Of a stretch of 64,000 bases of DNA, positions 8,599 through 42,330 are shown one piece after another. Each line of letters opens with the position of its first letter. Position 1 is the first letter of the stretch. The stretch covers positions 141,861 through 205,860 of the forward strand of contig CAZWIT010000001.1 of NCBI GenBank assembly GCA_964633905.1, written 5' to 3'. A program made the position numbers and the translations under genes. This DNA comes from an uncultured Gammaproteobacteria bacterium. GTDB taxonomy: Bacteria > Patescibacteriota > Patescibacteriia > UBA1558 > GWA2-36-10. The notes under the pieces are model-generated. The model was given only the letters and a program-made list of their open reading frames with translations. It was not told where the DNA came from and searched no databases.

Positions 8599-8614
8599 TA
8601 AATTTTAAATTAAT

Positions 8615-8660
8615 TCAAGCCAGCTTAGTCGCATCTAGTGTGGCTAAGCTGGCTTTTTAT
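8615..8660 (+). terminator. intrinsic terminator after typA
   Basis: aagccagcttag...ctaagctggctt hairpin then TTTTTATT. Confidence 0.5.
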
Positions 8661-8734
8661 TGACAAAAACTTTAGTTTTTAGATAAAATAAAATTGCCTT
8701 TAGCTGTTTATTTATTTTTGACCAAGGAGGTCGA

Positions 8735-8878
8735 ATGATGGCGAGTAAGGCAACAAAAGAAAAAGATAGTCTGCCCACTTGGGCTATAGTAGTTATACTA
8801 GTTGGATTTATTTTGCTCTTTATTATTGGTGGCGATAATTTAGCCAATGTTTTGCGTAGATGGTTTAAATTTGCCTAA
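8735..8878 (+). CDS. small membrane protein (47 aa) with strong SD
   Basis: AAGGAGG 5 nt upstream of ATGATG; single TM helix; below the 60-aa cutoff of the ORF track. Confidence 0.4.
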   Translation: MMASKATKEKDSLPTWAIVVILVGFILLFIIGGDNLANVLRRWFKFA

Positions 8879-9001
8879 AAGATATTTTGTTGACTGCTTG
8901 ATGCCTATAGTATCGAGCAGTTTTTCAATTATGACAAATTTTGACTTTATGTTATAATAATCTTGTTTATTAACATATAATATATTTTATATTTTAAAAT
9001 T

Positions 9002-12000
9002 ATGATTAAAAAATTATTTTCTAAGGAGTATCTAAAAGGTACGGCTAAAAGAAAAGTAGTAGCAATAATTGCTATAATTATTTCTGTCGGACTGGTGCTA
9101 GCATCGGTTTTTTATTTTTCTGGCGGCTGGGATAGATTTAAAGTAAAATTTGGCAAACAGCCGAGTTTGTTTGATGGTTTTTCTAAATTGATTTTAAATG
9201 GGGCTAATGCTCAAGATAATTTTGATTTAGAAGCAGTGGGTGCTGATAGTCTAGGTATTGATGTTGATACCAGCTTTATTTTGACTAGTAAAGATGATGT
9301 TAGTACTGAAGATGTTGAGAAAATTATTAAGCTTAGCCCAGCAATAGCTTATGCTTTGGAAGAGAAGGATAAAAACAAATGGGAAATTAAGCCTAAAGAG
9401 CCGTTAAATCCTAATGACATTATTCGTATTTCTATGGCCACGGCTTATGTGGCTGAAGAAGGTAAAGAGCAGAGTCGTTATTATGATTGGGCTTTTCAGG
9501 TAAAAGATAGCTTTAAGATTTTAAATACTATTCCGCGTGATACAGGCGTGAGCGTGCCGGTAAATTCTGGTATTGAAATCACTTTTAGCCATGAAAATTT
9601 TTATGACTATGAAAAATATTTTAGTTTAGAGCCTAGTGTTGAAGGTAGATTTGAAAAACATGGTCGTACTTTAGTTTTTGTGCCTAAAGAGCCACTAGCT
9701 CTTAGTCAGATTTATCGCGTTACTCTTAAGCAGGGATTAGCCTTGTCCGATAGCCAGGAAGTGTTAGCAAGTGATTATACTTTTGCTTTTGAAACTATCC
9801 AAAAGAAATTTCAATTAAGATCAAGTGATCGTGATCCTTGGCTTTATTTGCACGAAAAATTACAGGATTTTGCTATCAATGAAGCGCCTTTATTGTTTTT
9901 ATCAGCTATGAATATTCCCCAAGATACTCTAGAAGTAAATGTTTATCCTTTAGCTGGACAGTCTGAATATATTGAAATTTTAGATAAACGTGATCAATAT
10001 CCCTGGTGGTCTTATTCTAAAGATAATCAATTGGTAGATTTACAAAATAAAAATAAATTAAATTCTTGGAAATTAAAAATTGAACAACAAAATAACAATC
10101 AATTTATTCATTTTCCTGAAGGCTTACCAAAAGGTTATTTTGTGGTAGAAATAAAAAATGGAGATATTAATGATCAGGCAATTTTACAGATTAGTAATGC
10201 TTCGGCTTACGTAAATGTTGCTAAAGATAAAACAGTAGTTTGGGTAGCAGATTTAGCTGCTAAAAAGCCAGCCAGCAATGCCCAAGTAGAGTTATTGGGA
10301 GATAGTCAAAAATATAATGGTGATGCGCAAGGAGTGGCTAGTTTTACTACACCTGGTCAACTAACTAAAGAAGCTTTTGATAAAAAAGATAATAAACGTT
10401 ATTACTTTAAGGCTAGCTTTGGCGATGAATCATTAATTATACCAGCCTCTTATCTTTCTCCTTATTATGGTTATTGGAGTAATGATATTCAAGCAAATTA
10501 TTGGCAGTATTTTTATACTGACAGGCCTTTATATCAGCCGACTGATACGATTAAATTTTGGGGCTTGCTTAAATTAAGAAATAAACAAGATAGTAGTAAT
10601 GATCAAATGAAAGTTGAGCTTTATAAAGCTGGCTATGTTGATTATTATTATCGTCCAGTAATGATTTCTGAGCAGAGTTTAAGTATAGATAGCGATGGTA
10701 TTTATAGTGGTCAAATAGATATTAAGGATTTACGTTCGGATTATTATTATTTACAAGTTAAAGTTGGCGAGCAAATAGTAGCCACTAAGTATTTACAAGT
10801 TAATCCTTATGAAAAACCAGCCTATAACTTGACTTTAACTCCAGAAAAAAAAGCTGCTTTTGCTGGTCAAGAAATTAAATTAACAGGCTTGGCTACTTAT
10901 TTTGAGGGAACGCCAGTACCAAATTTAGCTTTAGTTTTTAATACTGGTAGTGGCTCTCAAAAAGTTACAACTGATTCAGAGGGTAAGGTTAATTTAGTTT
11001 ATACGGAAAAATATAATGATTGTCAAAGTGAATATAGTTGTTGGCCAAGGAATGCTTGGTTAGAGTTAAGGCCAGAATCATCAGAACTGGCTGATATTTC
11101 AGCTAGTGCTAGCTTAACTTTTTATGGACCTAGTGTTTATGCTACTCAAAAAGTTACTTATTCAGACACTGCTAAAGGACGTTTAGAAATTAAAACTAAA
11201 AAAGTTGATTTAAATAAAGCAGAAACTCCTTATTGGTGGGGATATGATGATAAAGAAGCGCAGATTGCTCCTAATGTAAAAATAGAAGGCGAGGTTAAAC
11301 AAATTAATTATAAGCGCATAGAAACTGGCACAGCTTATGATTTTATTAATAAAGTTTCCCATAAAACTTACCGTTATGAGCGCAGTGAAAAAATAGTTGA
11401 TAATTTTGTCGGTATTAGCGATGGTAATGGTACTTATGTTTATGAACGTCAAGTCGAGCCAGAAACATCATATGAGATTAGTTTGAAATATTATGATAGT
11501 GAAGGCAGGTATGACGTCACGCGGTCTTATATGTATTATAGCGTTGGTAATAGAATATATAATTATAATGGATATAATTTTGATTATTATCATTTAAAAT
11601 TAGACAAAGAAGAATATTCTGTTAGCGATGAAGTAGTAGTTGATTTTTTGAAAAATGAAGAAAATCTACCAAGCAATGATAATAATTATTATTTGTATTT
11701 ACAGCATCAAAATGGTCTACGCGAATATGCTGTGACTCAAAATTCTAAATATGCCTTTTTCTTTACTAATGATGATATTCCCAATGTTAATTTGACTGGA
11801 GTTTATTTTAATGGCAGGGCTTTTATAAATACTTGGGGAGATTCAGTGCGCCTTAAAAAGGCCGATAAAACCATGAGTATTGATATTAAGACTGATAAAG
11901 AAAAATATCAGCCTGGTGAAGAAGTAAAATTAGATATTGTTACTAAAAATGCTAAAGGTGAGCCAGTGAGTGCAGCCGTTAATTTGAATTTAATTGACGA

Positions 12001-14419
12001 AGCATTTTATGCGGTAATGGACGACCAGGCTCATCCGATTGAATCAATTTATACTGATGTTGGCTCAGGCGTGATTTATACTAATTTTAGTCACCGTACT
12101 GCTTCTACTGATATGATGCGAGCTAATAGTATGGGTGCAGAAAAAGGTTGTTTCTTGTCAGGTACCGATATTTTGATGGCTGACGGTAGCTCAAAGAATA
12201 TCGAAGACGTGATCGTTGGTGATCAAGTTTTGACTTTAGCTGATCCGAGGGAGAGTAGGAAAACGGTCGGTACTGTCACTGAACTATATCGTCATACGGT
12301 TGGTAAATATTTGATTATTAATAATAAGCTAAAAGTAACTCCAGAGCATTTAATTTATACTAATTTTAGCTTTCGTCCAGCTTCTAGTTTAAAAATCGGT
12401 GACTGGTTGCTGACAGCTGATAATGAATTAATCTATATTAATTCTATAGAAACTAAAGACGAAATAGTGCCAGTTTATAATTTTAGAGTGGATCCGCAAC
12501 ATACTTTTTTTGCTAATGGATTTTTTGTTCATAATGAAAAAGGTGGTGGACCTAGAGAATTTTTTACCGATGCGGCCCTATTTCAAACAGTTAAAACCAG
12601 TAGTAATGGTGCAGTAAGCACTAGCTTTAAGTTGCCAGACAATATCACTTCTTGGCGGGTAACAGCTCAAGGCGTGAGTTCTAATATTGATGTTGGTTTA
12701 AATGTTTCTAAAATTCCAGTATCTTTGCCAGTTTTTGTGGATGTTACTATTGGTAAAGAATATTTAAGTGGTGATGAGCCAGTCGCTCGTTTGCGCTCTT
12801 TTGGTTCAGTTTTAAATAGTACTGATAGTTTGACTATGAGTTTATCAGCTCCTGATTTAGGCATTGAGACTCCGCAAACTAAAACTACGACTGCTTTTAA
12901 GTCCGAGTACTTTACTTTGCCTAGTTTAAGCGAGGGTAGCTACGACATTGTTTATTCTTTAGATTCAAGTAAGGGCAAAGACAGTGTTAAGTTACCATTA
13001 AAGGCTTTGAGCTCACTACTTACTGCCCAGTCTACTAATATTCAGGAGGCAACAGCCGATTTAGTAGTAGAAAATAAATCCAAGATACCATTGGCTGTTA
13101 ATTTTTCCGATCGAGAACGTAGCGCTGTCTTTAAAACTTTGGCTAAACTGACTTGGTCCGGTGGCGCTCGGATTGATCAGGGCTTAGCTAGAAAGATGAG
13201 TAGGCAGATATTAGAAGAAAAATTTGGCTGGCATAAATCTGATCCAGAATTTTCAGCTTTTAAATATCAAATGGCTAGCGGCGGTTTGACACTTTTGCCT
13301 TATAGTAGCGAAGATCTAGAATTATCAGCTCGAGTCGCAGCTTTGCATGTCAACGGTTTTGATAATATGGCTTTAACAAATTATTTTTTCAAAAAACTTG
13401 AAGATAAAAAAAGCACTCCCGAAGAAGTGACATTGGCCTTGTATGGCTTGTCAGCTATGGGTGAGCCAATTTTACCTAGACTTGAGGCTTGGGCAAAACG
13501 CGAAGATTTAAAACCAAAAGAACGTTTATATTTAGCTTTAGCTTATTATCAAGCTGGCTCTAGTGAAAAAGCGCGGGATATTTATTTTAATATTATGGAG
13601 CAATATGCCCAGGTTAAAGAGCCGCATGTTATTGTTAAAGTTAGTGATAACGAAGATGAGGTGTTAGAATTTACTACTTTAACAGCAGTGCTGGCAGCTT
13701 ATTTAAATGAAGCGCAGCAATATGGCATGATTGATTGGTTGCATTACTATCGACCTAATGATATTTTGTTATATTTAGAAGATTTAAATTATGCCATTGC
13801 TCACTTGCATAATCTAACGGACACTAACAGAAGTGTTAAATTTAGTGTTAACAATGAAGAAGTGACAGCTGAATTGAAGATGCCAAGCTTTTCTTATGCT
13901 TTTGAGTTAGCGGCGGGGCAGTCGTTAAAAGTTTTAAACGCTGATTCAGATATTATGTTGGCGACTAGTCAGCCAGTGCCGATTAGTCTTAGTGATATTA
14001 CTCCTGATGCTAGTCTGGTTTTAAAAAGAGAATATTTTGTAAATAATAAAAAAGTTAATACTTTTAAAGAAAATGATTTGATTGAAGTTAGATTATATAC
14101 TGATTTTAAAGAAGGCGCTTTAGATGGTTCTTATCAGATTACGGATGTGTTGCCAGCTGGCTTGTTGCCAATGAGCAGAGTCTATAATGGCTATAAGACT
14201 GAGGATTGTCATTATTATTACCCTTATTATTTAGAAGGACAAAAAGTAAAATTTATAGTTAGTAAAAATTGGAAGAAAAGTGTTTGCTCTGACTATATTA
14301 AATACTATGCTCGCGTCAAAACCAAAGGTAAATACAGGGCCGAGCCAGCTATTATACAATCAATGCTCAATAGTGATTATCTAAATTTTTCTAGTGAAGA
14401 TAAGGTGCAGATTGAATAA
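9002..14419 (+). CDS. giant (1805 aa) membrane-anchored extracellular multidomain protein; possibly alpha-2-macroglobulin/Ig-like-domain family, with embedded Hint/BIL domain
   Basis: Single uninterrupted ORF; N-terminal TM anchor; long beta-rich middle; helical C-terminal third; no CxEQ thioester motif, so the A2M assignment is tentative. Confidence 0.8.
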   Translation: MIKKLFSKEYLKGTAKRKVVAIIAIIISVGLVLASVFYFSGGWDRFKVKFGKQPSLFDGFSKLILNGANAQDNFDLEAVGADSLGIDVDTSFILTSKDDVSTEDVEKIIKLSPAIAYALEEKDKNKWEIKPKEPLNPNDIIRISMATAYVAEEGKEQSRYYDWAFQVKDSFKILNTIPRDTGVSVPVNSGIEITFSHENFYDYEKYFSLEPSVEGRFEKHGRTLVFVPKEPLALSQIYRVTLKQGLALSDSQEVLASDYTFAFETIQKKFQLRSSDRDPWLYLHEKLQDFAINEAPLLFLSAMNIPQDTLEVNVYPLAGQSEYIEILDKRDQYPWWSYSKDNQLVDLQNKNKLNSWKLKIEQQNNNQFIHFPEGLPKGYFVVEIKNGDINDQAILQISNASAYVNVAKDKTVVWVADLAAKKPASNAQVELLGDSQKYNGDAQGVASFTTPGQLTKEAFDKKDNKRYYFKASFGDESLIIPASYLSPYYGYWSNDIQANYWQYFYTDRPLYQPTDTIKFWGLLKLRNKQDSSNDQMKVELYKAGYVDYYYRPVMISEQSLSIDSDGIYSGQIDIKDLRSDYYYLQVKVGEQIVATKYLQVNPYEKPAYNLTLTPEKKAAFAGQEIKLTGLATYFEGTPVPNLALVFNTGSGSQKVTTDSEGKVNLVYTEKYNDCQSEYSCWPRNAWLELRPESSELADISASASLTFYGPSVYATQKVTYSDTAKGRLEIKTKKVDLNKAETPYWWGYDDKEAQIAPNVKIEGEVKQINYKRIETGTAYDFINKVSHKTYRYERSEKIVDNFVGISDGNGTYVYERQVEPETSYEISLKYYDSEGRYDVTRSYMYYSVGNRIYNYNGYNFDYYHLKLDKEEYSVSDEVVVDFLKNEENLPSNDNNYYLYLQHQNGLREYAVTQNSKYAFFFTNDDIPNVNLTGVYFNGRAFINTWGDSVRLKKADKTMSIDIKTDKEKYQPGEEVKLDIVTKNAKGEPVSAAVNLNLIDEAFYAVMDDQAHPIESIYTDVGSGVIYTNFSHRTASTDMMRANSMGAEKGCFLSGTDILMADGSSKNIEDVIVGDQVLTLADPRESRKTVGTVTELYRHTVGKYLIINNKLKVTPEHLIYTNFSFRPASSLKIGDWLLTADNELIYINSIETKDEIVPVYNFRVDPQHTFFANGFFVHNEKGGGPREFFTDAALFQTVKTSSNGAVSTSFKLPDNITSWRVTAQGVSSNIDVGLNVSKIPVSLPVFVDVTIGKEYLSGDEPVARLRSFGSVLNSTDSLTMSLSAPDLGIETPQTKTTTAFKSEYFTLPSLSEGSYDIVYSLDSSKGKDSVKLPLKALSSLLTAQSTNIQEATADLVVENKSKIPLAVNFSDRERSAVFKTLAKLTWSGGARIDQGLARKMSRQILEEKFGWHKSDPEFSAFKYQMASGGLTLLPYSSEDLELSARVAALHVNGFDNMALTNYFFKKLEDKKSTPEEVTLALYGLSAMGEPILPRLEAWAKREDLKPKERLYLALAYYQAGSSEKARDIYFNIMEQYAQVKEPHVIVKVSDNEDEVLEFTTLTAVLAAYLNEAQQYGMIDWLHYYRPNDILLYLEDLNYAIAHLHNLTDTNRSVKFSVNNEEVTAELKMPSFSYAFELAAGQSLKVLNADSDIMLATSQPVPISLSDITPDASLVLKREYFVNNKKVNTFKENDLIEVRLYTDFKEGALDGSYQITDVLPAGLLPMSRVYNGYKTEDCHYYYPYYLEGQKVKFIVSKNWKKSVCSDYIKYYARVKTKGKYRAEPAIIQSMLNSDYLNFSSEDKVQIE
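12149..12535 (+). other. Hint (intein-like / BIL) domain, about 129 aa, inside the giant CDS (C1050..N1178)
   Basis: Block A CFLSGTDILMADG, block B TPEH, block F/G VYNFRVDPQHTFFANGFFVHN; the residue after HN is Glu, not C/S/T. Confidence 0.7.
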
Positions 14420-24477: not shown

Positions 24478-24684
24478 ATGTCGCGTTTGACTTATGTCCT
24501 GACCGAGCCCTTGTGCCTGGTTTGCCGGACGGCGGCTCTGACCATCTACACACGCGAGGCCTACGCCCAGGAGATGGAGCGGTGTAGCTCGCTTGAGCGT
24601 CGCCGTTTCGAAGAGAGCATGGTCGGCGGCACCATCATTGGCCTGCTGGCCATCGCGGTCCATACCATCGTCAAGACTTTCTAG
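24478..24684 (+). CDS. small protein (68 aa) with C-terminal TM helix, GC-rich (about 58%)
   Basis: AAGGAG SD 7 nt upstream of ATG; own promoter and terminator; composition strongly deviates from flanks. Confidence 0.4.
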   Translation: MSRLTYVLTEPLCLVCRTAALTIYTREAYAQEMERCSSLERRRFEESMVGGTIIGLLAIAVHTIVKTF

Positions 24685-24866: not shown

Positions 24867-25157
24867 GTGCAACAAGCAGAAATCAAGAGTCTCTTAATTG
24901 AGTTAGCTCAAGATGACTGTTCTTTTGCGCGTCATCAAGAAGTTTCTCAGTTGTTTTATGCTGCTGCTCAGCGTCGGCCAGCACCTGACTCTACTACTGA
25001 TGATACTAGTATGTTATTTACAGCCATGCTCAATAAACTTTTGCGGATTGTGAATAAGAAACATTTGCCGGGCTTATTTCCGGTTTTTGCTATGTTGTGT
25101 GGCGATCGTTATGATTTTATTGGTTTTGCTGAAATTGACTGGGATTTGATGTCTTAG
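24867..25157 (+). CDS. hypothetical small protein (96 aa, GTG start)
   Basis: AAGGAGA SD before GTG; upstream TTGACA-N17-CTAAAT promoter (24781-24809); followed by terminator. Confidence 0.4.
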   Translation: MQQAEIKSLLIELAQDDCSFARHQEVSQLFYAAAQRRPAPDSTTDDTSMLFTAMLNKLLRIVNKKHLPGLFPVFAMLCGDRYDFIGFAEIDWDLMS

Positions 25158-25215: not shown

Positions 25216-25305
25216 TGAATAAACAACCATTGACTTTGGGTGTAACTATAGTATACTTATATGTTTTAGGTCCAAGTTCTTCACATCAAACTTTAAGGGG
25301 GCTCA

Positions 25306-25938
25306 ATGAACGCTGCCTTTTTTGGAGTTTTAATGCTTCTTTTAATTGCGGTAGTATTTTACGTATGGGTTTCTAATATAAATTATAAAACTCGTAAAGA
25401 ACAAGATAGGCTGGAAGCACTTGATGCTATTGAGAGAGTAGAGACAGAGAGTCCTGAATATATATTGACTCATAAGCCAAGTCCTTATCAGATTGAAGTT
25501 ATTCTTAGTTCTAATCCAAATTACCACATTGAACAGATGGCTATTAAAGCAGCTTTGGCTAGCAGAAATATTATTTCTTTATCTTTAGTAGATAAGTATG
25601 CGCCACGGTATAGCGAGCAAGCAAGTCGTGCTCACTGGGATATTATATTTGCTAAAGCCAATACTATTGCTGAATGCGAGCAGTTACTTAGAGAACATAG
25701 GCATGATTGTAGTGATTGGTGTTTAGCTTGGAAAGCTAAACTTGAACAGAAAATTAAGCAAGCTAGACAGCTTGAGAAGAAAGTAGCTTTCTTGAATCAA
25801 GCGAGGGCAGCTGGTATAGAAGTGTGTTCTATTTGTGACACAGTAGATCCCACAAGATGCGATGATTGTAACTGTTGTATTTCAGGCAAAAGAGGTTGTT
25901 CGCATAGCTTTGGTGGGCTATGTGAGGACTGTAAATAG
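25306..25938 (+). CDS. membrane-anchored protein with C-terminal 8-Cys domain (paralog A)
   Basis: 210 aa; AAGGGGG SD; N-terminal TM; C-terminus CSICDTVDPTRCDDCNCCISGKRGCSHSFGGLCEDCK. Confidence 0.6.
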   Translation: MNAAFFGVLMLLLIAVVFYVWVSNINYKTRKEQDRLEALDAIERVETESPEYILTHKPSPYQIEVILSSNPNYHIEQMAIKAALASRNIISLSLVDKYAPRYSEQASRAHWDIIFAKANTIAECEQLLREHRHDCSDWCLAWKAKLEQKIKQARQLEKKVAFLNQARAAGIEVCSICDTVDPTRCDDCNCCISGKRGCSHSFGGLCEDCK

Positions 25939-25957
25939 ATGCTCCTATAAGTGTTTG

Positions 25958-26030
25958 AGCCTCACAGCTTTGTGTAAGCATTGTGGGGCTTTTTTATTTT
26001 AAAAAAAGCCCTACGATAGGTAGGGCTTAA
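25958..26030. terminator. back-to-back terminators between convergent paralogs
   Basis: gcctcaca...tgtggggcttttttatttt (plus strand) and aaaaaaagccctacgataggtagggctt (minus strand). Confidence 0.5.
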
Positions 26031-26070
26031 GATTTTTAGCTTATAATTTTGTTTACTAAATTTTATGAAA

Positions 26071-26769
26071 TTAATCATAATAAAGATAGTAACAACTATA
26101 ACATTCCCCATCATAATCAGAACAGTCGCCATTACCAGAAATACAAGTATGATCACTGCATTTACATCTTCTAGGTTCAATGGTCTTACATTTCCAACAA
26201 ACATCTTGTCCAGCGGCTTCAGCTTGTTCTAGTTGGGCTTGACGTATTGCATTGGCAGCTTGTCTTTCGCGCGCTTCAATAATTGGTAAAGCTCTAGCTT
26301 CCAATTTAGGCTTCCAAGTGTGCCACCATTTACCATGGCTAGATGTAGTATCATTATCCCAAACACTATTTTTCCTTAGAGTAACTTCACACTCTTCATC
26401 TGGGATTTTGCTCATTATTATATCCATGATAGCAAAGTAAGCGCGTTCCTTATCTATTGTGCTAATAAAATTAAACCTATCAAGTACAGATATAGTATAA
26501 ATGCTACCGCTTTTTAGTGCAGCGTCAATAGCCATTTGTCTGATTTTTGGATCATGATTTTCATTTAAAATATTTGCTATTTGTCCATAACCAGGATCAT
26601 GACTAAGGATATATTCAGGGGTTTGGCGCCTAGCTCTTTCTTCATCTCTGGCTTTTTGTTCAGCTTCGATTTTACGATATTCTGCATCTTTTTTTTCATT
26701 TTCTTCTAAATTTTGTATAAAAAATATACATAACAATACTACTATCAAAATGATTCCTAGGCCTATCAT
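26071..26769 (-). CDS. membrane-anchored protein with C-terminal 8-Cys domain (paralog B)
   Basis: 232 aa; AAAGGAGG SD; shares PEYIL(S/T)H, QMAI.AAL and the CxxCxT.xPxRCxxC...CISGxxxCS Cys pattern with paralog A. Confidence 0.6.
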   Translation of the reverse strand: MIGLGIILIVVLLCIFFIQNLEENEKKDAEYRKIEAEQKARDEERARRQTPEYILSHDPGYGQIANILNENHDPKIRQMAIDAALKSGSIYTISVLDRFNFISTIDKERAYFAIMDIIMSKIPDEECEVTLRKNSVWDNDTTSSHGKWWHTWKPKLEARALPIIEARERQAANAIRQAQLEQAEAAGQDVCWKCKTIEPRRCKCSDHTCISGNGDCSDYDGECYSCYYLYYD

Positions 26770-26825: not shown

Positions 26826-26854
26826 AATATATGCTAAAAAAGCTCAGGTGTCAA
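26826..26854 (-). promoter_or_regulatory. sigma70-like promoter for paralog B (TTGACA-N17-TATATT on minus strand)
   Basis: Read from reverse complement of 26826-26854. Confidence 0.4.
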
Positions 26855-28655: not shown

Positions 28656-30233
28656 ATGTCTGAAGAACAAAAAAGATTATTAGAAAAACAGCTTTGGAAG
28701 GTTGCTGATGTTTTACGTGGCAAAATGCATGCCGATGAATATAAAAACTATATTCTCGGTTTTATTTTTTATAAATATCTTTCTGAAAAATTAGAGCTTT
28801 TTGTAAACGATAAATTATTAGCTAGTGAAAAATTTATTTTTTCTGAGATTAAAGAAGATACTAAGCTTGGTAAAGAAAATCTCAGGCATATCGAAATTGC
28901 TTGTACTGATCAGCTAGGATTTTTTCTAAGACCAACGGAGCTTTTTTCTTATTTAGTTAAAAAGGGTAAAGGTGAGATTAAAGGCGAAGAATCTTTTATT
29001 TTGGAAGATCTTAAAAATGTTTTAAACGATATAGAAAAGACTTCGGATGGTACAGCTAGCGAGGATGATTTTAAGGGTTTATTTGATGATATGGACCTTA
29101 CTTCTTCTAAACTCGGTTCTCGTGAAAGTGATAAAAATGAAGTTGTAGTTGAGATACTCAGTTTACTCAGTGGTATCGATTTTAAACTTAAGGATTCAAA
29201 AAGCGATTTACTTGGCGATGCTTATGAATATTTGATCGGTGAATTTGCGGCTGGTGCTGGTAAAAAGGGTGGTGAATTTTATACACCTGCTCAAGTATCA
29301 CGCTTACTAGCTCAAATTGTTTCTGTAGATAAAAAACGTATCAAATCAGTCTATGATGCCGCTTGTGGTTCTGGTTCGCTTTTGTTGCGTCTAGGTGAGT
29401 TTACTGATGTAGTCAATTATTATGGGCAAGAGCTCAATCCAACTACTTATAACTTGGCTCGTATGAATATGATCTTGCATGGCGTGCACTTTGATCATTT
29501 TTCCATCCGCCAAGGTGATACACTCCGAGAGGATATGCACCCTGATTTGAAGGCTGAAGCTATAGTCGCTAATCCACCATTTGCTGCTCAATGGAAAGGA
29601 GATACGGATCCAGCTTTAGCGCATGATGATCGTTTTTCTCAATATGGTCGGTTAGCGCCAAAGAGCGCGGCTGATTATGCTTTTGTTACTCACATGCTTT
29701 ATCATCTGGCTGACAATGGTACTATGGCAATTGTCTTACCTCATGGTGCACTTTTCCGTTCTGGTGCTGAGGGACATATCCGTAAGTATATTATAGAAAA
29801 ACAAAATTATCTTGATGCGGTGATAGGATTGCCGGCCAATTTGTTTTATGGCACTTCTATTCCAGCTACTGTTTTAGTGTTTAAGAAATGCCGTCGTGAG
29901 GATGAAGATATTTTATTTATTGATGCTTCCAAAGAATTTGAAAAAGTAGGTAATCAAAATAATCTTAGTGACGAAAATATTGCCAAGATTTTTGATACTT
30001 ATAAAAATCGTAAAGAAATAGCCAAATATTCCCACAAAGCTTCTTTAGCTGAAATCAAGGAAAATGAATATAATCTCAATATTCCACGTTATGTAGATAC
30101 TTTTGAAGAAGAGGAATTGGTAGACATTGGTCAAGTTGCAAAAGATTTGAAAGATTTATCTAAGCAAGAAGTAGATTTGCAAAATAAAATAGCAGAATTT
30201 TGTGAAGAATTAAAAATAGATAAGCCTTTTTAG
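28656..30233 (+). CDS. hsdM: type I restriction-modification system, methyltransferase subunit
   Basis: 525 aa; HsdM N-terminal domain, motif I DAACGSGS, motif IV NPPF. Confidence 0.9.
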   Translation: MSEEQKRLLEKQLWKVADVLRGKMHADEYKNYILGFIFYKYLSEKLELFVNDKLLASEKFIFSEIKEDTKLGKENLRHIEIACTDQLGFFLRPTELFSYLVKKGKGEIKGEESFILEDLKNVLNDIEKTSDGTASEDDFKGLFDDMDLTSSKLGSRESDKNEVVVEILSLLSGIDFKLKDSKSDLLGDAYEYLIGEFAAGAGKKGGEFYTPAQVSRLLAQIVSVDKKRIKSVYDAACGSGSLLLRLGEFTDVVNYYGQELNPTTYNLARMNMILHGVHFDHFSIRQGDTLREDMHPDLKAEAIVANPPFAAQWKGDTDPALAHDDRFSQYGRLAPKSAADYAFVTHMLYHLADNGTMAIVLPHGALFRSGAEGHIRKYIIEKQNYLDAVIGLPANLFYGTSIPATVLVFKKCRREDEDILFIDASKEFEKVGNQNNLSDENIAKIFDTYKNRKEIAKYSHKASLAEIKENEYNLNIPRYVDTFEEEELVDIGQVAKDLKDLSKQEVDLQNKIAEFCEELKIDKPF

Positions 30234-30238
30234 CTACT

Positions 30239-30868
30239 ATGTCTTATATATTTTTGGATGAAAGTGGAGATTTAGGGTTTAAGCCGACGTCAAGCAAGTG
30301 GTTTATTTTTACTATTGTTTTGGCTAGCCACCACAAAAAGATAGAAAAAGTTATTAAAAATATTAGAAAGAGCTTAAAAAAGAAATATAAAATAAAAGAA
30401 TTACACGCTTATCATGCAGATCCGCTTACTAGGCATAGGATGCTAAAAAATTTAGCCGAGCTGGAAGATTTGAAAGTACTTTGTGTTATTTTGAATAAGA
30501 AAAAAGTTTATACTGATTTACAGAATCAAAAAAATTATTTATACAATTATACGGCTAATATTTTGTTAGATCGTTTGCATAATAAAAAATTAATTAAAAC
30601 AGATGAGCCAATAAATTTGTATATTGATAAAAAAGATACTAACAAATTTATTAGGAATAATTTTCAAAAATATTTAGAAGATAATCTTTTAAAAAGAGGT
30701 AATAGTGGTAAGATTGAAATAAAAATAAAAGCCTCGCATACAGAAAAGTGTTTGCAAGCAGTTGATTTTGTAAGCTGGGCTATTTTTAGAAAATACGAAA
30801 AAAACGATTATGAATATTATAATGATATCAAAGATAAGATTATAGAAGAAAATTTATTGTTTTCTTAA
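30239..30868 (+). CDS. DUF3800-family protein embedded in R-M operon
   Basis: 209 aa; N-terminus MSYIFLDESGDLGF characteristic of DUF3800. Confidence 0.55.
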   Translation: MSYIFLDESGDLGFKPTSSKWFIFTIVLASHHKKIEKVIKNIRKSLKKKYKIKELHAYHADPLTRHRMLKNLAELEDLKVLCVILNKKKVYTDLQNQKNYLYNYTANILLDRLHNKKLIKTDEPINLYIDKKDTNKFIRNNFQKYLEDNLLKRGNSGKIEIKIKASHTEKCLQAVDFVSWAIFRKYEKNDYEYYNDIKDKIIEENLLFS

Positions 30869-31045
30869 AAAGAAAACCCCCTGCTTTGACGAGACGCCTT
30901 ACGGTATCTCAACGCAGGAGGAATTACATCTATTTATAATATACATAAATTGTTTAATCTTGTCAACATAAGATTATAAGATTATAAATTTATAACTAAT
31001 ATAAGATAAAATTAATATATAGTCTGGGAATAATAGTGTTAAAAT

Positions 31046-32221
31046 ATGTTAAATAAGCATAATAAAATAAATATTAAAAACAACGTCCCCAAACTCCGTT
31101 TTCCGGGTTTTTCTGGTGAGTGGGGTGAGAAAAGATTAGGCGATTGTTTAGATTATGAACAACCAACAAATTATATTGTTCATAGTACAGAATATAATGA
31201 TTCTTATAAAACTCCCGTATTGACAGCTGGTAAAAGCTTCATTCTTGGCTACACAAATGAAGAGGATGATATTTTTGATAATTTACCAGTTATTATATTT
31301 GATGATTTTACAACTGCCTCTCAATTTGTTGATTTTCCATTTAAGGTTAAATCTTCAGCTATGAAAATTTTAAAACCAAAAGATAGATTGGACATTAGAT
31401 TTATTTTTGGTGCAATGAGTCAAATAAAATATAAAATTGGTGGTCATGGTCGACATTGGATTTCAAAATATTCAAATATAAAATTTTTTATACCAAATAA
31501 TAACAAAGAACAACAGAAAATCGCTGAATTTTTAGGGTCAATTGATGAATGGATAGAAAATCTAAAAAATCAAAAAAAATCTTTTGAAGCTTATAAAAAA
31601 GGCTTGATGCAAAAAATATTCTCACAAGAAATAAGATTTAAAGATGATAGCGGCAAGGATTTTCCGAAGTGGGAGGAAAAGAGGTTGGGAGATACAGGGG
31701 AAGTAATTACTGGCTCTACACCGCCAACAGCTAATAAAGAGTATTATAATGGTACTTTTCCATGGATAACACCTACGGATATAAATCATTCTAAAAATAT
31801 TTATTCGTCAGCAAAACTTTTGACGAAAAAGGGGTTAAGTGTAGCTCGTTTAATCCCTAAAAATAGTTTATTAGTCACCTGTATTGCGAGTATTGGTAAA
31901 AATGTAATTTTAAGATTAGATGGAAGTTGTAATCAGCAGATTAATGCTATTTATCCTAATAAAAATAATGACGTAGATTTTTTATATTATCTTGTAGAGA
32001 AGAATAAAAATATTTTAATAAGGTTCGCTGGTGCTGGTGGGATGCAAATGTTAAACAAGAAGGATTTTTCTAATTTAACTTTTAAAATTCCCACTATTGG
32101 TGAACAACAAAAAATTGCTGAATTTTTAGGCTCAGTTGATAATTTAATAGAGTCAAAAGAGAAACAGGTTAGTCAGGCTGAACAATGGAAAAAGGGGTTG
32201 ATGCAGAGATTGTTTGTATAA
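31046..32221 (+). CDS. hsdS: type I R-M specificity subunit
   Basis: 391 aa; two target-recognition domains each followed by conserved QQKIAEFLGS...L.. KKGLMQ repeat. Confidence 0.85.
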   Translation: MLNKHNKINIKNNVPKLRFPGFSGEWGEKRLGDCLDYEQPTNYIVHSTEYNDSYKTPVLTAGKSFILGYTNEEDDIFDNLPVIIFDDFTTASQFVDFPFKVKSSAMKILKPKDRLDIRFIFGAMSQIKYKIGGHGRHWISKYSNIKFFIPNNNKEQQKIAEFLGSIDEWIENLKNQKKSFEAYKKGLMQKIFSQEIRFKDDSGKDFPKWEEKRLGDTGEVITGSTPPTANKEYYNGTFPWITPTDINHSKNIYSSAKLLTKKGLSVARLIPKNSLLVTCIASIGKNVILRLDGSCNQQINAIYPNKNNDVDFLYYLVEKNKNILIRFAGAGGMQMLNKKDFSNLTFKIPTIGEQQKIAEFLGSVDNLIESKEKQVSQAEQWKKGLMQRLFV

Positions 32222-32227
32222 AAAATT

Positions 32228-33055
32228 ATGACAGAAGAAATTAGACAAAATGAAACTGGTATTTTATTTGATGGATCAAAATTTGAGATAACTCATGACA
32301 TCTTGCCTATTTTTTATTTTTTGAAAGGGATAGAAATCGAGATTGAAAATATTTTGGGGTTTGACAATAAATTAGAAAAATTGAGATCTGGTTATTTAGA
32401 AATTTTTAATTTTACTAAATTTCTTGCAGAAAAATTAAAAGAAAACAACATTAATTTTGAGTACAATTTGAATCACAATTTATTTTCGTTAATGGATGAG
32501 TTTCATTTTAATTCACCGGACAGATCACAGATGATATCTTTATTTGCTAGTTTAGAAGTATTATATTTTTTATATATTTCATATGAGCAAGAGACTAGTA
32601 ATGACGATATTTTAAGAAAAATAGCGATGAGTGAAAAAAAATTTTATAGTAGATTTATCAGGACTTTTCTTTTCACAGATCAAAATCAATATTACTTAGA
32701 AAATAAAGAAAGATTGAATAAGATAGACCCGATAAAGATAAGGAAATTAAGAAACTCATTAACACATTTTTTTTCTTTAGCACCAGGAGGATTATCTATA
32801 GCTCCGAGCAATGAGTATGAAAAAGCAAGGCGTTTAGAAAAAAAATTACAACAGGATAAAAAAGGTTATATAGTTTTTATTTCAACAAAAGATTTGTTTG
32901 AATTAATTAAATTTGCAAACATTTTAATGTTTAAAAAATGGAGCGATGATTTTTTGTTGTCTCCAAATGATTTTCGTAGAAAAATTCAGTATGTTATTAC
33001 TGTAGTTAGGGATAATGGTGCAGTTATTATAATGAATAAAGATTTAAAAATTTAG
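32228..33055 (+). CDS. hypothetical protein, possible HEPN/Abi-like (Rx4H motif RNSLTH) between hsdS and hsdR
   Basis: 275 aa; RKLRNSLTHF matches Rx4-6H HEPN signature; position typical of embedded defence genes. Confidence 0.4.
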   Translation: MTEEIRQNETGILFDGSKFEITHDILPIFYFLKGIEIEIENILGFDNKLEKLRSGYLEIFNFTKFLAEKLKENNINFEYNLNHNLFSLMDEFHFNSPDRSQMISLFASLEVLYFLYISYEQETSNDDILRKIAMSEKKFYSRFIRTFLFTDQNQYYLENKERLNKIDPIKIRKLRNSLTHFFSLAPGGLSIAPSNEYEKARRLEKKLQQDKKGYIVFISTKDLFELIKFANILMFKKWSDDFLLSPNDFRRKIQYVITVVRDNGAVIIMNKDLKI

Positions 33056-33058
33056 TTT

Positions 33059-35860
33059 ATGACACATCAATCAGAACAACAGCTAGAAAAAACATTAATC
33101 GAACAGCTTAAGCGCTTAGGCTTTGCTTCTATTATTTTAGTAGACGAAACTGATTTGATTAGAAATTTACATCAGCAATTAGAGAAATTTAATCAAACTA
33201 AATTTTCAGCTCAAGAGTTTATAAAAATTTTAAATCATATCAATAAAGGTGATCGTTTTTATAAGGCCAAAACTTTACGTGATAGATTTGCTTTGAAACG
33301 GGATGATGATAGTACTTTTTTTGTGCGATTTTTCAATATGGATTATTGGTGTAAAAATGAATATCAAGTTGCTCAACAAATTGTTCAGACTGGTCGCTAT
33401 AAAAATCGTTATGATGTAACTTTGCTAGTCAATGGCCTGCCTTTGGTGCAGGTTGAGCTCAAGCGTCGTGGTATGGAGCTCAAAGAGGCCTTTAATCAAA
33501 TTCAGCGTTATCACAAGCATTCCTTTGCGGGGACTTTTTTTGACTATATTCAGATATTTGTCATCTCTAACGGAGTCAATACAAAATATTTTGCCAACAA
33601 TCCCAAACAAACTTTTGAACAAACATTTTATTGGACCGATATCAATAATAGAAAAATCACCAAGTTAGATGAATTCGCGGAAGTATTTTTGGAAAAATGC
33701 GCAGTATCAGAAATGATTGCTGAATACATAGTATTGGCCGAAGCGACTAAAATTCCCATGGTACTGCGCCCATACCAGTATTATGCAGTCAAAGCTATAG
33801 CTGAGCAAGTGCGTAAATCTGATAGTAATAGCTATATTTGGCATACTACTGGCTCAGGCAAGACACTGACCTCATATAAAACCAGTCAAATATTATCGCG
33901 TATACCAGAAGTAAAAAAAGTACTTTTTGTAGTAGATAGAAAAGATTTGGATATTCAGACCACCAAAGAGTTTAATTCATTTTCCGAAGGATCTGTAGAT
34001 GGCACCAACAATACCAGAAGTTTAGTCAATCAACTCCAAGACAAAAATAGAAAATTGATTGTTACTACCATCCAAAAATTGGATATTGCTATTGGCCGAG
34101 AAATATATTTAAAGAAATTTGAGTATTTGGCTGACGAAAAAGTAGTGATTATTTTTGATGAATGTCATCGTAGTCAATTTGGTCAGACACATGCACGTAT
34201 TAAGGGATTTTTTAGAAAAGCACAGTTATTTGGTTTTACTGGCACACCTATTTTTGCCGATAATAATATTGGTGGGGTAACGACTATGGATGTTTTTGGT
34301 AAATGCCTACATAAGTATGTCATCACCAATGCTATCGCTGATAACAATGTTTTGGGATTTGCTGTTGAATATGTCGGTAAATACAAACAAAAAGATCTAG
34401 ATACTTTGGATGCTGATATTTTTGCCGATGCTATGGTAGAGGGTATTGATACCAAAGAAGTATTAGAAAGCGATGGTCGTTTGCATAAAATTACGGATTA
34501 TATTTTGGCTGATTGGAAGCGGAAAACTAAACAAGGTAAATTCAATGCTTTATTTGCGGTTTCATCTATTGAAGTTTTAAAAAAATATTATACTTTACTC
34601 AAAGCTAAGAAAGCAGATGATTTTTCTATTGCTACTATTTTTACCTATCAAGTAAATGAAAACGAAAGCTCGGATATGCTTGATGTCGATGTTTTTGCTG
34701 ATGAGGGAGCGGCTATCAATAAGCACTCCAGGGACTTTTTAGAGGAATGTATTAAAGACTATAATAAAAAATATCTGACTAATTTTTCTACTGATCGTTT
34801 TTATGATTATTATCGGGATTTACAAAAAAGGATAAAGAACAAAGAAGTTGATCTGACTTTGGTAGTGAATATGTTTTTGACTGGTTTTGACAGTCCTAGA
34901 TTAAATACACTCTACGTAGATAAAAATTTACGCTATCATGGACTTGTTCAGGCTTATTCCAGAACTAATAGGCTATTAAATTCGGATAAACCTCATGGCA
35001 ATATTGTTTCTTTTAGGAATTTAAAAGAAGCTACTGATAGGGCTTTAGCATTGTTTGGCGATGAAAATGCCAAAGAGGTAGTATTTAAGAAGCCGTACGA
35101 AGCACAGAAAAAAGAATTTGATGAAAAGCTATCGGAATTGCGAGATAAAGTGCCGACTGTTGCATCAGTGGACGATCTTCAAGGTGAAGAAAAAAAGGCG
35201 GAATTTGTTAAATCTTTCCGTGATTTATTACGTATTAAATCATCTTTGGAGACCTTTGCTGAATTTTCTTTTAAGGATCTCGGCATAACAGAGCAAGAAT
35301 TTTATGATTATCAGAGCAAATATTTGGATGTTTATGAGGATCGTAAAAATAATAATAGTGATGTTGAATCAATTTTAGATCAGATTGATTTTGAGATAGA
35401 TCTTACTGTACGAGATATTATTAATTTTGATTATATAATTCAACTTATTGCTGGTTTAAAAAATATTAGTTCAGCTGTAGTGCGCAAAAAGAAGACGGAT
35501 GAGATTTTGCAATTATTTGATAGAGATGCTCAAATGCGTAAAAAGAAAGATTTGATCCAGAAATTTATTGAAAAAAATTTACCAAAAATTAGTAAGTCAG
35601 ATGATGTGGAAAAAGCTTTTAGTGAATTTTGGACAAGTGAGCGTTCTGCTAGCTTGAAAAAGATCGCTCAAAAAGAAAAAATTCCTGTAGAGAAATTTGA
35701 ATATCTAATTGGAGAATATTTATATAGTCAGAAATTACCAAATGGACAGGATATTATTGATTTATTACCCGGAGGAATTCCTAGAATTAGAGATAGACAG
35801 GGGATTATCGACAGAATTAAGAGCGCTTTACAAAATATAGTTGATATATTTGAGTGGTAG
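33059..35860 (+). CDS. hsdR: type I restriction enzyme R subunit (SF2 helicase-nuclease)
   Basis: 933 aa; HsdR N-terminal nuclease, Walker A TGSGKT, DECH box (IFDECHRSQ). Confidence 0.9.
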   Translation: MTHQSEQQLEKTLIEQLKRLGFASIILVDETDLIRNLHQQLEKFNQTKFSAQEFIKILNHINKGDRFYKAKTLRDRFALKRDDDSTFFVRFFNMDYWCKNEYQVAQQIVQTGRYKNRYDVTLLVNGLPLVQVELKRRGMELKEAFNQIQRYHKHSFAGTFFDYIQIFVISNGVNTKYFANNPKQTFEQTFYWTDINNRKITKLDEFAEVFLEKCAVSEMIAEYIVLAEATKIPMVLRPYQYYAVKAIAEQVRKSDSNSYIWHTTGSGKTLTSYKTSQILSRIPEVKKVLFVVDRKDLDIQTTKEFNSFSEGSVDGTNNTRSLVNQLQDKNRKLIVTTIQKLDIAIGREIYLKKFEYLADEKVVIIFDECHRSQFGQTHARIKGFFRKAQLFGFTGTPIFADNNIGGVTTMDVFGKCLHKYVITNAIADNNVLGFAVEYVGKYKQKDLDTLDADIFADAMVEGIDTKEVLESDGRLHKITDYILADWKRKTKQGKFNALFAVSSIEVLKKYYTLLKAKKADDFSIATIFTYQVNENESSDMLDVDVFADEGAAINKHSRDFLEECIKDYNKKYLTNFSTDRFYDYYRDLQKRIKNKEVDLTLVVNMFLTGFDSPRLNTLYVDKNLRYHGLVQAYSRTNRLLNSDKPHGNIVSFRNLKEATDRALALFGDENAKEVVFKKPYEAQKKEFDEKLSELRDKVPTVASVDDLQGEEKKAEFVKSFRDLLRIKSSLETFAEFSFKDLGITEQEFYDYQSKYLDVYEDRKNNNSDVESILDQIDFEIDLTVRDIINFDYIIQLIAGLKNISSAVVRKKKTDEILQLFDRDAQMRKKKDLIQKFIEKNLPKISKSDDVEKAFSEFWTSERSASLKKIAQKEKIPVEKFEYLIGEYLYSQKLPNGQDIIDLLPGGIPRIRDRQGIIDRIKSALQNIVDIFEW

Positions 35861-40650: not shown

Positions 40651-42330
40651 ATGATCATTTTAATATTATTTGCCTTTTTAGGAGGCTTAGTTACTATTTT
40701 ATCTCCTTGCATTTTACCGATTCTGCCAATTATTTTGGCTGGATCTTTAACAGGTGGTAAGCGTAAACCTTATGGTATTATTTTAGGTTTTGTTTTTAGT
40801 TTTACTTTTTTTACTTTATTTTTATCTAGTTTGGTAAAACTATTTAATATTTCCGCTGATAATTTACGCTACTTGTCTATTGTGATTTTAATAATTTTTG
40901 CTTTAACATTATTAATACCTCAAATTCAATTATTTTTAGAAAAAATAATTAGTCGTTTTTCTTCGTTGTTAGGGAGTAGTAGTAAGCGGCAGGGTTTTAG
41001 TGGCGGTTTACTAATTGGTTTTAGTTTGGGTTTATTGTGGACGCCTTGTGTTGGTCCGATTTTAGCATCAGTAATAACTCTGGCTTTAACTGGTTCGGTT
41101 AGTGGTGGAGCATTTTTAATTACTTTAGCTTATTCTTTAGGTACGGCCTTACCGATGTTAGCGATTATGTACGGCGGTCGGAATTTACTTAATAAAGCGC
41201 CTGGTTTATTAAAAAATAGTGTAGCTATCCAAAAAGTTTTTGCTGTTATTATGATCATTACGGCAGTTTTGATTTATTTTAATCTTGATCGTAAATTCCA
41301 AGTTTATATTTTAGAAAAATTTCCCAGCTATGGTACTGGTCTTACTAGTTTAGAAAATAATAATTTAATTAAAAAACAATTAAATAAGCTTATGGCTAAT
41401 TCAGAAGATAGCCTAATTGGCAAAACAGCGCCAGCTTTGCAAGTTGGTGGTGTTTGGCTTAACTCACCAGCTTTGAATTTAGAGCAGCTTAAAGGGCATG
41501 TAGTTTTATTAGATTTTATGACTTATTCTTGTATCAATTGTATTCGGACCTTTCCGTACTTGGAGGCTTGGCATCAGGCTTATCAAGCTGATGGTTTGGT
41601 AATTATTGGCATTCATTCGCCGGAATTTGAGTTTGAAAAAAATCCTGACAATGTTAGGCAAGCTTTGAGTGATTTTGGTTTAAGTTTCCCAGTGATGCAA
41701 GATAATGATTTTAAAACTTGGCAAGCTTATAGTAATCAATATTGGCCTCATACTTTTTTGATAAATTATCAAGGACAAATAGTTTATGATCATATTGGTG
41801 AAGGTGCTTATGATGCTACTGAAGCCAAAATTCAAGACTTATTAAAAGAGCGTCAACTAGCCTTAGGTTTGTCTCAGGATTTAGATAAAGATGTTAGTAA
41901 AAATGTTGTAGTTGATACTAAAGGCTTGATTCAAAGTCCAGAAATATATTTTGGTTCTCGTCGTAATAGTCTTTTGGCTAACGGTAAACAGGGTTTTTCT
42001 GGTCAACAAACTTTGCTTAAGCCAGCTAAAATTAAAATTAATAATTTATATTTAGTTGGCACTTGGGATATCCAAAGTGAATATGCTCAAAACGTTGAAA
42101 AAGAGGCAAGTATTATTTTTAAATATAATGCTAGGCAGATTTTTATGGTTGCTGGAGCTGAAGGTGAGATTAGTGTGCGGATAAAGCAAGATGGTCAAGA
42201 TTTAGGAGTTATTAAAATTAATGAAGAAAAATTATATAATTTAGTAGATAATAATAAAGCGGGTGAGCATACTATTGAATTGATCCCAGAAAGTAGTGGT
42301 TTACAAATATTTACCTTTACTTTTGGTTAA
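40651..42330 (+). CDS. CcdA/DsbD-like membrane domain fused to TlpA/ResA-like thioredoxin domain
   Basis: 559 aa; N-terminal polytopic domain with conserved Cys pair, periplasmic CxxC (YSCINC). Confidence 0.7.
   Translation: MIILILFAFLGGLVTILSPCILPILPIILAGSLTGGKRKPYGIILGFVFSFTFFTLFLSSLVKLFNISADNLRYLSIVILIIFALTLLIPQIQLFLEKIISRFSSLLGSSSKRQGFSGGLLIGFSLGLLWTPCVGPILASVITLALTGSVSGGAFLITLAYSLGTALPMLAIMYGGRNLLNKAPGLLKNSVAIQKVFAVIMIITAVLIYFNLDRKFQVYILEKFPSYGTGLTSLENNNLIKKQLNKLMANSEDSLIGKTAPALQVGGVWLNSPALNLEQLKGHVVLLDFMTYSCINCIRTFPYLEAWHQAYQADGLVIIGIHSPEFEFEKNPDNVRQALSDFGLSFPVMQDNDFKTWQAYSNQYWPHTFLINYQGQIVYDHIGEGAYDATEAKIQDLLKERQLALGLSQDLDKDVSKNVVVDTKGLIQSPEIYFGSRRNSLLANGKQGFSGQQTLLKPAKIKINNLYLVGTWDIQSEYAQNVEKEASIIFKYNARQIFMVAGAEGEISVRIKQDGQDLGVIKINEEKLYNLVDNNKAGEHTIELIPESSGLQIFTFTFG

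Follow-up and report, generated by a model that had tools for sequence, protein, structure and literature searches.

A convergent gene pair from a rare family of predicted membrane proteins with a C-terminal Cys module

The convergent pair and the predicted anatomy of its products

We analysed a 64,000-nucleotide stretch of DNA (hereafter the window) from contig CAZWIT010000001.1, assembly GCA_964633905.1, positions 141,861 to 205,860, in which two genes, here named A and B, face each other. The two genes, their transcription signals and their Cys-rich C-terminal segments are laid out in the window as follows, with A on the forward strand and B on the reverse strand.

25230..25257 (+): promoter-like site of A, TTGACT-16-TATACT, 10/12; a consensus match only
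25306..25938 (+): gene A, 210 aa, from the list of open reading frames (ORFs); orthologue P0004, 81% identity
25801..25935 (+): Cys module of A, AAGIEVC174-x2-C177-DTVDPTR-C185-x2-C188-x-C190-C191-ISGKRG-C198-x7-C206-x2-C209
25957..26001 (+): putative intrinsic terminator of A, hairpin at about 25957-25991 and then U6AU4; fold -21.1 kcal/mol, z -2.67
26000..26028 (-): putative intrinsic terminator of B, 9-bp GC-rich hairpin 26028-26006 and then U7; z -3.34
26071..26769 (-): gene B, 232 aa, from the ORF list; orthologue P0002, 77% identity
26074..26223 (-): Cys module and tail of B, AAGQDVC191-x2-C194-KTIEPRR-C202-x-C204-x4-C209-ISGNGD-C216-x6-C223-x2-C226-YYLYYD
26826..26854 (-): promoter-like site of B, TTGACA-17-TATATT, 11/12, from a sigma-70-like consensus scan

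The initial annotation of this locus had described A and B as convergent, diverged paralogous membrane proteins. Its coordinates were exact, the two products aligned by BLASTP across 225 columns with 34% identity (E 9e-31), and an N-terminal hydrophobic helix was found in both. The motifs it had quoted, PEYIL(T/S)H, QMAI.AA and AAGxxVCxxCxTxxPxRC...CISG...C...CxxC, were all seen in a four-sequence alignment, as was the shared C-terminal Cys module, which holds eight Cys in B (C191, 194, 202, 204, 209, 216, 223 and 226) and nine in A (C174, 177, 185, 188, 190, 191, 198, 206 and 209), the ninth because of a CC doublet. The same convergent pair was present on a 3.2-kb metagenome contig (L002), preceded in conserved order by the 96-aa and 68-aa ORFs that lie upstream of A in the window. 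In comparison with this one close relative, dN/dS was 0.19 for A, 0.22 for B and 0.19 for each of the two upstream ORFs, and as these values are all about 0.2, the four ORFs can be taken as real, constrained genes. A and B are paralogous and under purifying selection.

Each of the two genes carries what appear to be the signals of an independent transcription unit. The sigma-70-like promoter sites listed above are accompanied by Shine-Dalgarno sequences ahead of both starts (AAGGGGG for A and AGGAGG for B, as read from the sequence), and two distinct terminator hairpins with U-tracts sit between the two stop codons, that of B being matched in folding by 0/200 shuffles. The separate promoters and back-to-back terminators that had been proposed for the pair were thus both recovered as predicted sites. 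Across the scanned region, 28 promoter-like sites were counted against 16.0 +/- 3.9 in shuffles, and nine terminator-like sites against 3.4 +/- 1.8.

An AlphaFold2 (AF2) model of B was built with an alignment of 41 family sequences, whose collection is described below, and had a mean pLDDT of 96.3; with four sequences the value was 79.4 and the Cys region was disordered. The resulting layout of B, together with that of A, was as follows.

B, aa 2-48: single long helix comprising the membrane segment (aa 1-19) and a charged stalk (AF2)
B, aa 51-133: compact six-helix bundle beginning at PEYIL (AF2)
B, aa 144-185: 42-residue helix (AF2)
B, aa 186-223: knot with short beta bridges (Cys module aa 186-226) (AF2)
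B, aa 224-231: short terminal helix; aromatic/acidic end YYLYYD (AF2)
A, whole product: membrane helix aa 4-22, charged stalk, helical domain from PEYIL (aa 50-54), long helix, Cys module aa 166-210

The hydrophobic helices (aa 4-22 in A, aa 1-19 in B) were located with 19-residue Kyte-Doolittle windows. The helical domain, PEYIL...IRQMAIDAAL, is all-helical and weakly HEAT-repeat-like. Overall, these computations show that family members are built, in order, of an N-terminal membrane helix, a charged helical stalk, the helical domain, a roughly 40-residue helix and a Cys module of similar length, usually followed by an aromatic, Asp-rich tail whose last residue is Asp. Two members, P0008 and P0011, are syntenic orthologues, each flanked by a DEAD-box helicase gene and a DUF2196 gene; P0008 bears the Cys module, whereas P0011 (and also P0014) has instead an acidic tail ending in DYWEPExxDWSSG. 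This swap indicates that the helical domain and the Cys module are separable units. Asp is the C-terminal residue of 30/41 members, many of which have DDDDD runs mixed with Tyr/Trp, and at least three Asp/Glu occur within the last eight residues of 18/41. B ends in YYLYYD (aa 227-232); A, which ends in EDCK without an acidic tail, has lost the aromatic/Asp end kept by B. The acidic-aromatic tail and the frequent terminal Asp suggest a C-terminal short linear motif.

Family extent, predicted topology and putative metal ligands of the Cys module

No match above threshold was obtained for A or B in Pfam, NCBIfam, PHROGs or PADLOC, the noise lying mostly across the membrane helix. Word-indexed homology searches returned a single relative per paralogue (the L002 orthologues), and the 41-sequence profile returned three proteins. 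An exhaustive HMMER search with the four-sequence profile against 1.84 billion cluster representatives recovered 39 proteins at E <= 1e-3, of which 11 were at E <= 1e-10. About 10 of the 39 align over much or all of the profile (P0006-P0014), and the remaining hits have in common the C-terminal module alone, often duplicated in tandem; the tandem-module members are short proteins with a membrane helix and a Lys/Glu-rich helix, those with two modules having 16-21 Cys. The family was not found in the IMG/VR viral contigs, two family loci (one of them known beforehand) were found in JGI metagenomes, and a scan of species-representative genome contigs for the helical-domain motif gave no match. 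Four carriers were identified among species-representative genomes, namely two Candidatus Parcubacteria, one Patescibacteria and one bin labelled Gammaproteobacteria, and one orthologue was located on a 1.18 Mb contig. The family is therefore very rare and absent from the curated libraries searched, with labelled carriers that are mostly Patescibacteria (candidate phyla radiation). The window itself holds no rRNA gene, and an origin in Patescibacteria is suggested for it by these relatives. At one further locus (L019, 5297-7587), the two-module member P0029 lies directly downstream of a gene for a 517-aa multi-Fer4 membrane protein, in a context of Gram-negative type (RND adaptor/efflux, outer-membrane factor, TetR), so that the module is not strictly confined to the Patescibacteria radiation.

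The distribution of charged residues around the N-terminal helix bears on the side of the membrane on which the module lies, the positive-inside rule being an established basis for predicting topology. Single-helix members have 0-1 Lys/Arg before the helix (mostly 0), and the 15 residues that follow it hold 3-7 in most cases. Two-helix members (P0009, P0012 and others) have a basic N-terminus and a loop of about 10 residues, which would leave both ends inside. Lastly, 10/41 members have no hydrophobic segment at all, and among these are short proteins without a signal peptide, such as P0017 (86 aa, MGQSDDPDD...). Based on this charge distribution, the two-helix variants and the variants without a membrane helix, we infer that the N-terminus lies outside and that the bulk of the protein and its module are cytoplasmic. 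A lipobox is absent from A and B, and neither a signal peptide nor an N-in signal anchor that would place the Cys module outside was predicted from the charge flanks. The topology prediction that the initial annotation had called for thus points to a cytoplasmic module.

The converse arrangement would have the Cys module exported, with four disulfides, as an extracytoplasmic disulfide-stabilised knot on a membrane anchor. The even Cys count (eight) in a compact stretch would suit such a knot, as would a weak match to a disulfide-rich carboxypeptidase inhibitor (E 0.18) and the presence in the window, unlinked to the pair, of a gene at 40651-42330 (+) for a 559-aa fusion of a DsbD/CcdA transmembrane domain, a Redoxin domain and a thioredoxin-like C-terminal domain, from which the organism can be said to possess extracytoplasmic thiol-redox machinery. 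However, export would require translocation of 150-190 highly charged residues without a signal peptide, across a helix that has few or no basic residues before it and several after it. It would also be at odds with the two-helix variants, which have both ends inside, with the quarter of members that lack the hydrophobic helix, and with a Cys-to-His swap at the last position of the module, which is typical of metal ligands. We consider this arrangement highly improbable.

Alignment of 43 modules gave the consensus AxAxG-x-D-V-C1-x2-C2-x-T-I-x-P-x-R-C3-x(1-4)-C4-x2-C5-x(2-5)-C6-x(6-8)-C7-x2-C8/H, with five invariant positions (C1, C2, C5, C6 and C7), two nearly invariant ones (C3 and C4) and, most often, the spacing 2/7/2/2/2/7/2. 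Several members have His as the last ligand, with tails such as CFIHD, CWFHW, CYIHDD, CYYHDD and CSVHYDDD, and an exchange of Cys for His at a fixed position argues for a metal ligand rather than a disulfide partner. Eight thiol/imidazole ligands in the cytoplasm would correspond to a pair of bound metal ions, most probably structural Zn(II) in both cases. A cytoplasmic location of the module and its binding of two metal ions are held with fair confidence, zinc being likelier than Fe-S. Of the two alternatives that had been offered for the Cys residues, the Zn-binding one thus gains from the cytoplasmic charge pattern, the helix-less members and the His swap, and the extracytoplasmic disulfide module is disfavoured.

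The 43 isolated modules were also scanned against Pfam, where every match was below threshold. The matches were nevertheless not random, and the families recovered were the following.

DHHC (PF01529): 11/43 modules, best E 0.0063; the most frequent family
Fer4_6: 4/43 modules, best E 0.002
Double zinc ribbon (DZR): 4/43 modules, best E 0.032
Fer4: 3/43 modules, best E 0.007

The Fer4_6 and Fer4 matches, the resemblance of C4-x2-C5-x2-C6 to the ferredoxin CxxCxxC and the position of the L019 gene after that for the multi-Fer4 protein are what would be expected if the module bound Fe-S clusters, in which case the family would consist of membrane-tethered redox or oxygen/redox-sensing proteins. 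Yet the string CxxCxxCxxxCP occurs in 0/41 proteins and CxxCxxCxxxC in 3/41, His replaces the last ligand in several members, and the beta-hairpin motif C-x2-C...I-x-P-x-R is of zinc-ribbon type, aligning with L40e at E 0.15. The DHHC resemblance is, besides, more frequent and better supported. Fe-S binding is in our judgement unlikely.

A different reading of the Cys residues was suggested by one locus, L007, in which the following genes were found near the module protein P0042.

L007 7842-8063 (-): 73-aa ORF ending DCDGDCGQDDCDCADYDDC, which follows the radical SAM/SPASM gene
L007 8018-9037 (-): radical SAM/SPASM gene
L007 9244-9441 (+): 65-aa ORF with DnaJ-type CxxCxGxG repeats, directly upstream of the gene for P0042

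This stretch (7842-9441) may be a small peptide-modification cluster, and with the SPASM gene and the small ORF lying 0.5-1.7 kb upstream of the module gene, the Cys/Asp-rich C-terminus could be viewed as a substrate, be it a ribosomal peptide precursor in which a radical SAM/SPASM enzyme makes thioether cross-links or a metal buffer of the metallothionein kind. The 16-21 Cys of tandem two-module members and the Asp-rich tails common in the family would be in keeping with this. A SPASM enzyme is however encoded in this single locus and in none of the window, L005, L008, L012 and L016, and a ribosomal peptide precursor was rejected as a general explanation. In the module, the consensus is ordered and position-specific and the fold is predicted with confidence; unlike leader-core precursors, the module is fused to a structured membrane protein of 180 residues. 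A substrate role thus appears extremely improbable. A Radical_SAM gene was also noted in L015, 3.8 kb from the family gene.

Pairing, inheritance and gene neighbourhoods

Full-length-family and module profiles were run against the six-frame ORFs of each locus collected. Two copies were found only in the window, in L001 (which is the window sequence) and in L002, with independent E values for the module profile of 2e-11 (A) and 4e-22 (B); a single copy was found in L003, L005, L006, L007, L008, L011, L012-14, L015 and L016-18. The paralogues are therefore not always paired in relatives, a point that the initial annotation had left to be checked, and the pairing is lineage-specific and not a property of the family. 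The family gene often lies a few kb from genes for an S11 D-Ala-D-Ala carboxypeptidase and glycolysis enzymes (window, L005, L012 and L016), the S11 proteins of the window and L012 being 36% identical, and A and B, at 33-41% GC, differ little from the flanking DNA. This flank-like GC and the recurrent S11/glycolysis proximity argue that the pair arose by an old local duplication, at a site in the chromosome that is loosely conserved. On these same grounds a horizontal island was rejected for the pair, and vertical inheritance plus local duplication is favoured over an imported cassette. A phage origin was likewise rejected, as no homologue was found in the IMG/VR viral contigs; a structure search for a viral fold match found none.

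The pair sits among small, lineage-specific orphan genes, in agreement with the initial description of its surroundings. Two of these are the ORFs shared with L002.

24478..24684 (+): 68-aa ORF with a CxxC and a C-terminal hydrophobic tail; L002 homologue, no family match
24867..25157 (+): 96-aa orphan ORF upstream of A; L002 homologue, no Pfam match

The 68-aa ORF falls within the sole GC-rich patch of the region (24.2-25.0 kb, 45-49% against about 35%), and may be an unrelated orphan or else act with the pair as a tail-anchored partner. On the other side, 1.9 kb from the pair, begins a type I restriction-modification operon that also contains extra genes (28656-35860, +).

28656-30233 (+): hsdM
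30239-30868 (+): DUF3800 gene, inserted in the operon
31046-32221 (+): hsdS
32228-33055 (+): 275-aa ORF without a Pfam match, inside the operon
33059-35860 (+): hsdR

This operon with its inserted DUF3800 gene, the orphan genes around the pair and the occurrence of relatives near genes for a DEAD-box helicase, a PIF1 helicase, an Eco57I-type methylase and small GIY-YIG proteins could together be taken to mean that the pair is an anti-phage or conflict module in a defence island, made of a membrane effector and a sensor. Against this, PADLOC gave no match for A or for the neighbouring orphan ORFs and, for B, only ZorB across the membrane helix (E 0.022); neither viral contigs nor viral folds yielded a relative; and the loosely conserved position near the S11 carboxypeptidase and glycolysis genes argues for vertical inheritance. 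As no partner gene is constant across the family either, we regard a defence function as very unlikely.

The neighbours that recur loosely around family genes are those for DEAD and PIF1 helicases, NUDIX, methylase, small GIY-YIG and type I restriction-modification proteins. In four loci, a gene for a TPR protein was also found, convergent to the Cys-module gene.

L005 2311-3198: TPR protein homologue
L007 11629-12513: TPR protein homologue
L004 1020-1841: TPR protein homologue
L003 1745-1993: TPR protein homologue

The full-length copies (L005 and L007) have a membrane helix at their start, and in three of the four loci the TPR gene is separated from the Cys-module gene by a small GIY-YIG gene. 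TPR carboxylate clamps bind acidic C-termini, and by analogy the membrane-anchored TPR protein could be a reader of the acidic C-terminus of the family. No TPR homologue was found in the window, L012, L015 or L016, and the protein was accordingly set aside as a conserved partner and kept as a lead only.

Elsewhere in the window, a gene at 9002-14419 (+) encodes an 1805-aa alpha-2-macroglobulin-like protein with MG2, A2M bait region and A2M domains. A HINT/intein-like segment (aa 1050-1178; PT-HINT E 4e-9, Hom_end_hint E 6e-7) lies just N-terminal of its A2M domain, and an intein or pretoxin-HINT within a bacterial A2M is unusual.

Proposed role and comparison with known systems

In the initial annotation, the Cys spacing had not been recognised from any known family. 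This did not quite hold, as the commonest spacing and the I-x-P-x-R motif fit the first half of the DHHC domain. In a profile search of solved structures, the L40e zinc ribbon (2AYJ) was aligned over VC-x2-C-x3-N-P-x-R...C-x2-C (E 0.15) and zebrafish DHHC15 over C-x2-C-x2-I-K-P-D-R-C-H-H-C-x2-C-x2-C (E 1.7); the commonest module spacing, C-x2-C-x7-C-x2-C-x2-C-x2-C-x7-C, is that of DHHC15 through seven Cys. A DHHC reference profile was made from five domains taken from solved-structure alignments (zDHHC20, DHHC15, zDHHC9, zDHHC5 and Erf2). Comparison of the module with this profile by hhalign gave a probability of 89.7% (P 1.8e-6) over 27 columns that cover C1-C6 and I-x-P-x-R. The score of 30.9 compares with 9.2 +/- 2.0 (maximum 18.5) over 200 column shuffles of the DHHC alignment (z about 11), which is so far above the shuffles that Cys content alone is insufficient to explain the match. 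When the alignment was extended, C7 was set opposite the catalytic Cys, without confidence (global hhalign probability 14.5%). In zDHHC20 we take the ligands to be C128, C131, H141 and C148 for one ion and C142, C145, H154 or H155 and C162 for the other; mapped onto the module by analogy, these would possibly give the ligand sets C1, C2, C3, C6 and C4, C5, C7, C8.

The features that define zDHHC enzymes were then looked for in the family. The DHHC tetrapeptide, TTxE, DPG and PaCCT motifs are listed as such, and the enzymes have at least four transmembrane helices, with the DHHC domain in a cytoplasmic loop between helices 2 and 3 (PMC8059564). By regular expression, DHHC and D[HY][HY]C were found in 0/41 family proteins; TTxE was in none of them, no PaCCT motif was found, and DPG occurred once, in B, far from the module. 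Near-DHHC strings (DHTC in B, DHLC in P0019 and DHEC in P0037) are not conserved. Neither A, B nor any of the 43 isolated modules matched PF01529 above the Pfam gathering threshold. Set against the ligand pattern Cx2Cx9HCx2Cx4DHHCx5C, the first half of the module agrees in spacing and in I-x-P-x-R, whereas the His ligands and the second half differ. Since the DHHC motif, conserved His ligands and a four-helix membrane core are all lacking, we conclude that the family proteins are not palmitoyltransferases/S-acyltransferases. A match to a well-known domain, which would have told against the novelty first claimed for the module, was thus found in part, as a sub-threshold DHHC resemblance, and no full match was obtained.

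Overall, we think it reasonably probable that A and B belong to a rare family of single-pass membrane proteins in which a cytoplasmic, two-metal, DHHC-like module serves a membrane-tethered adaptor, and that they are a duplicated pair with separate transcription. An old duplication in the window lineage would have given the convergent pair, after which the copies diverged. We propose that a partner, either a protein or a nucleic acid, would be kept at the cytoplasmic surface of the membrane by the helical domain together with the zinc knot and acidic C-terminus; taken by itself, this adaptor role is put forward with low confidence. A and B may act as a heterodimer through their long helices.

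Several observations weigh against this interpretation. Zn cannot be told from Fe-S by sequence, and four modules weakly match 4Fe-4S families. Gene neighbourhoods are not conserved across the family, with no constant partner in the loci compared. In HMMER, the similarity to DHHC stays below threshold (best Pfam E 0.006; solved structures E 0.2-1.7); it extends only over the module's first half and may reflect convergence towards a zinc-knuckle geometry. Foldseek returned no DHHC enzyme among the best 50 of 279 matches (E <= 10), for which the knot on long helices is a poor query. True homology between this prokaryotic module and the eukaryotic DHHC Cys-rich zinc-binding scaffold is in our view doubtful, with a modest chance of being correct.

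Through this analysis, A and B pass from orphan genes to members of a defined family with predicted topology and cofactor, in labelled carriers that are mostly Patescibacteria. The family brings with it a new, cleanly delimited eight-ligand module, predicted to bind metal (G-x-D-V-C-x2-C-x-T-I-x-P-x-R-C...) that occurs singly or in tandem, membrane-anchored or on soluble proteins.

Three known systems bear comparison with it. ZipA-type proteins are bitopic membrane tethers with the N-terminus out and a cytoplasmic C-terminal domain, and share with the family a single N-terminal helix without a basic flank, a charged linker and a cytoplasmic interaction domain. The likeness is one of topology only, as the family has no sequence or fold similarity to ZipA and nothing ties it to FtsZ or cell division. 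Zinc ribbons (L40e, DZR / Zn_Ribbon_1) share the arrangement of CxxC, about 10 residues and CxxC in a beta-hairpin knuckle; the module differs in having eight ligands instead of four and in its G-x-D-V and T-I-x-P-x-R-C signature, which is missing from those families, and all matches to them were sub-threshold.

The closest comparison is with the DHHC domain (PF01529; human zDHHC20 6BML, zebrafish DHHC15 6BMS), which binds two Zn ions at the cytoplasmic face, each via three Cys and one His (PMC8059564). Both are Cys-rich knots of about 40-50 residues predicted or known to lie at the cytoplasmic face in membrane proteins, both have an [IF]-x-P-x-R hairpin motif after the first CxxC, and the eight ligands of the module would suffice for two Zn, as in the DHHC domain. 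The module, in contrast, is all-Cys with an optional last His and no conserved His ligands, its C7-x2-C8 does not fit DHHC-x5-C-x4-N-x3-F, and it is C-terminal in proteins with 0-2 N-terminal helices. zDHHC enzymes are reported to be absent from prokaryotes (PMC8059564), so that a true homologue would be a candidate evolutionary precursor of the DHHC finger and, given common descent, would open a way from prokaryotes into the question of how the eukaryotic S-acylation machinery arose. In such a homologue C7, which by spacing falls opposite the catalytic Cys, might accept an acyl group. Without common descent, the module would still illustrate, in compact form, how the same two-metal knuckle can be reached by convergence. 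What is new is thus an unannotated family with a putative two-metal Cys8 module, whose nearest relative or analogue is the first half of the DHHC finger.

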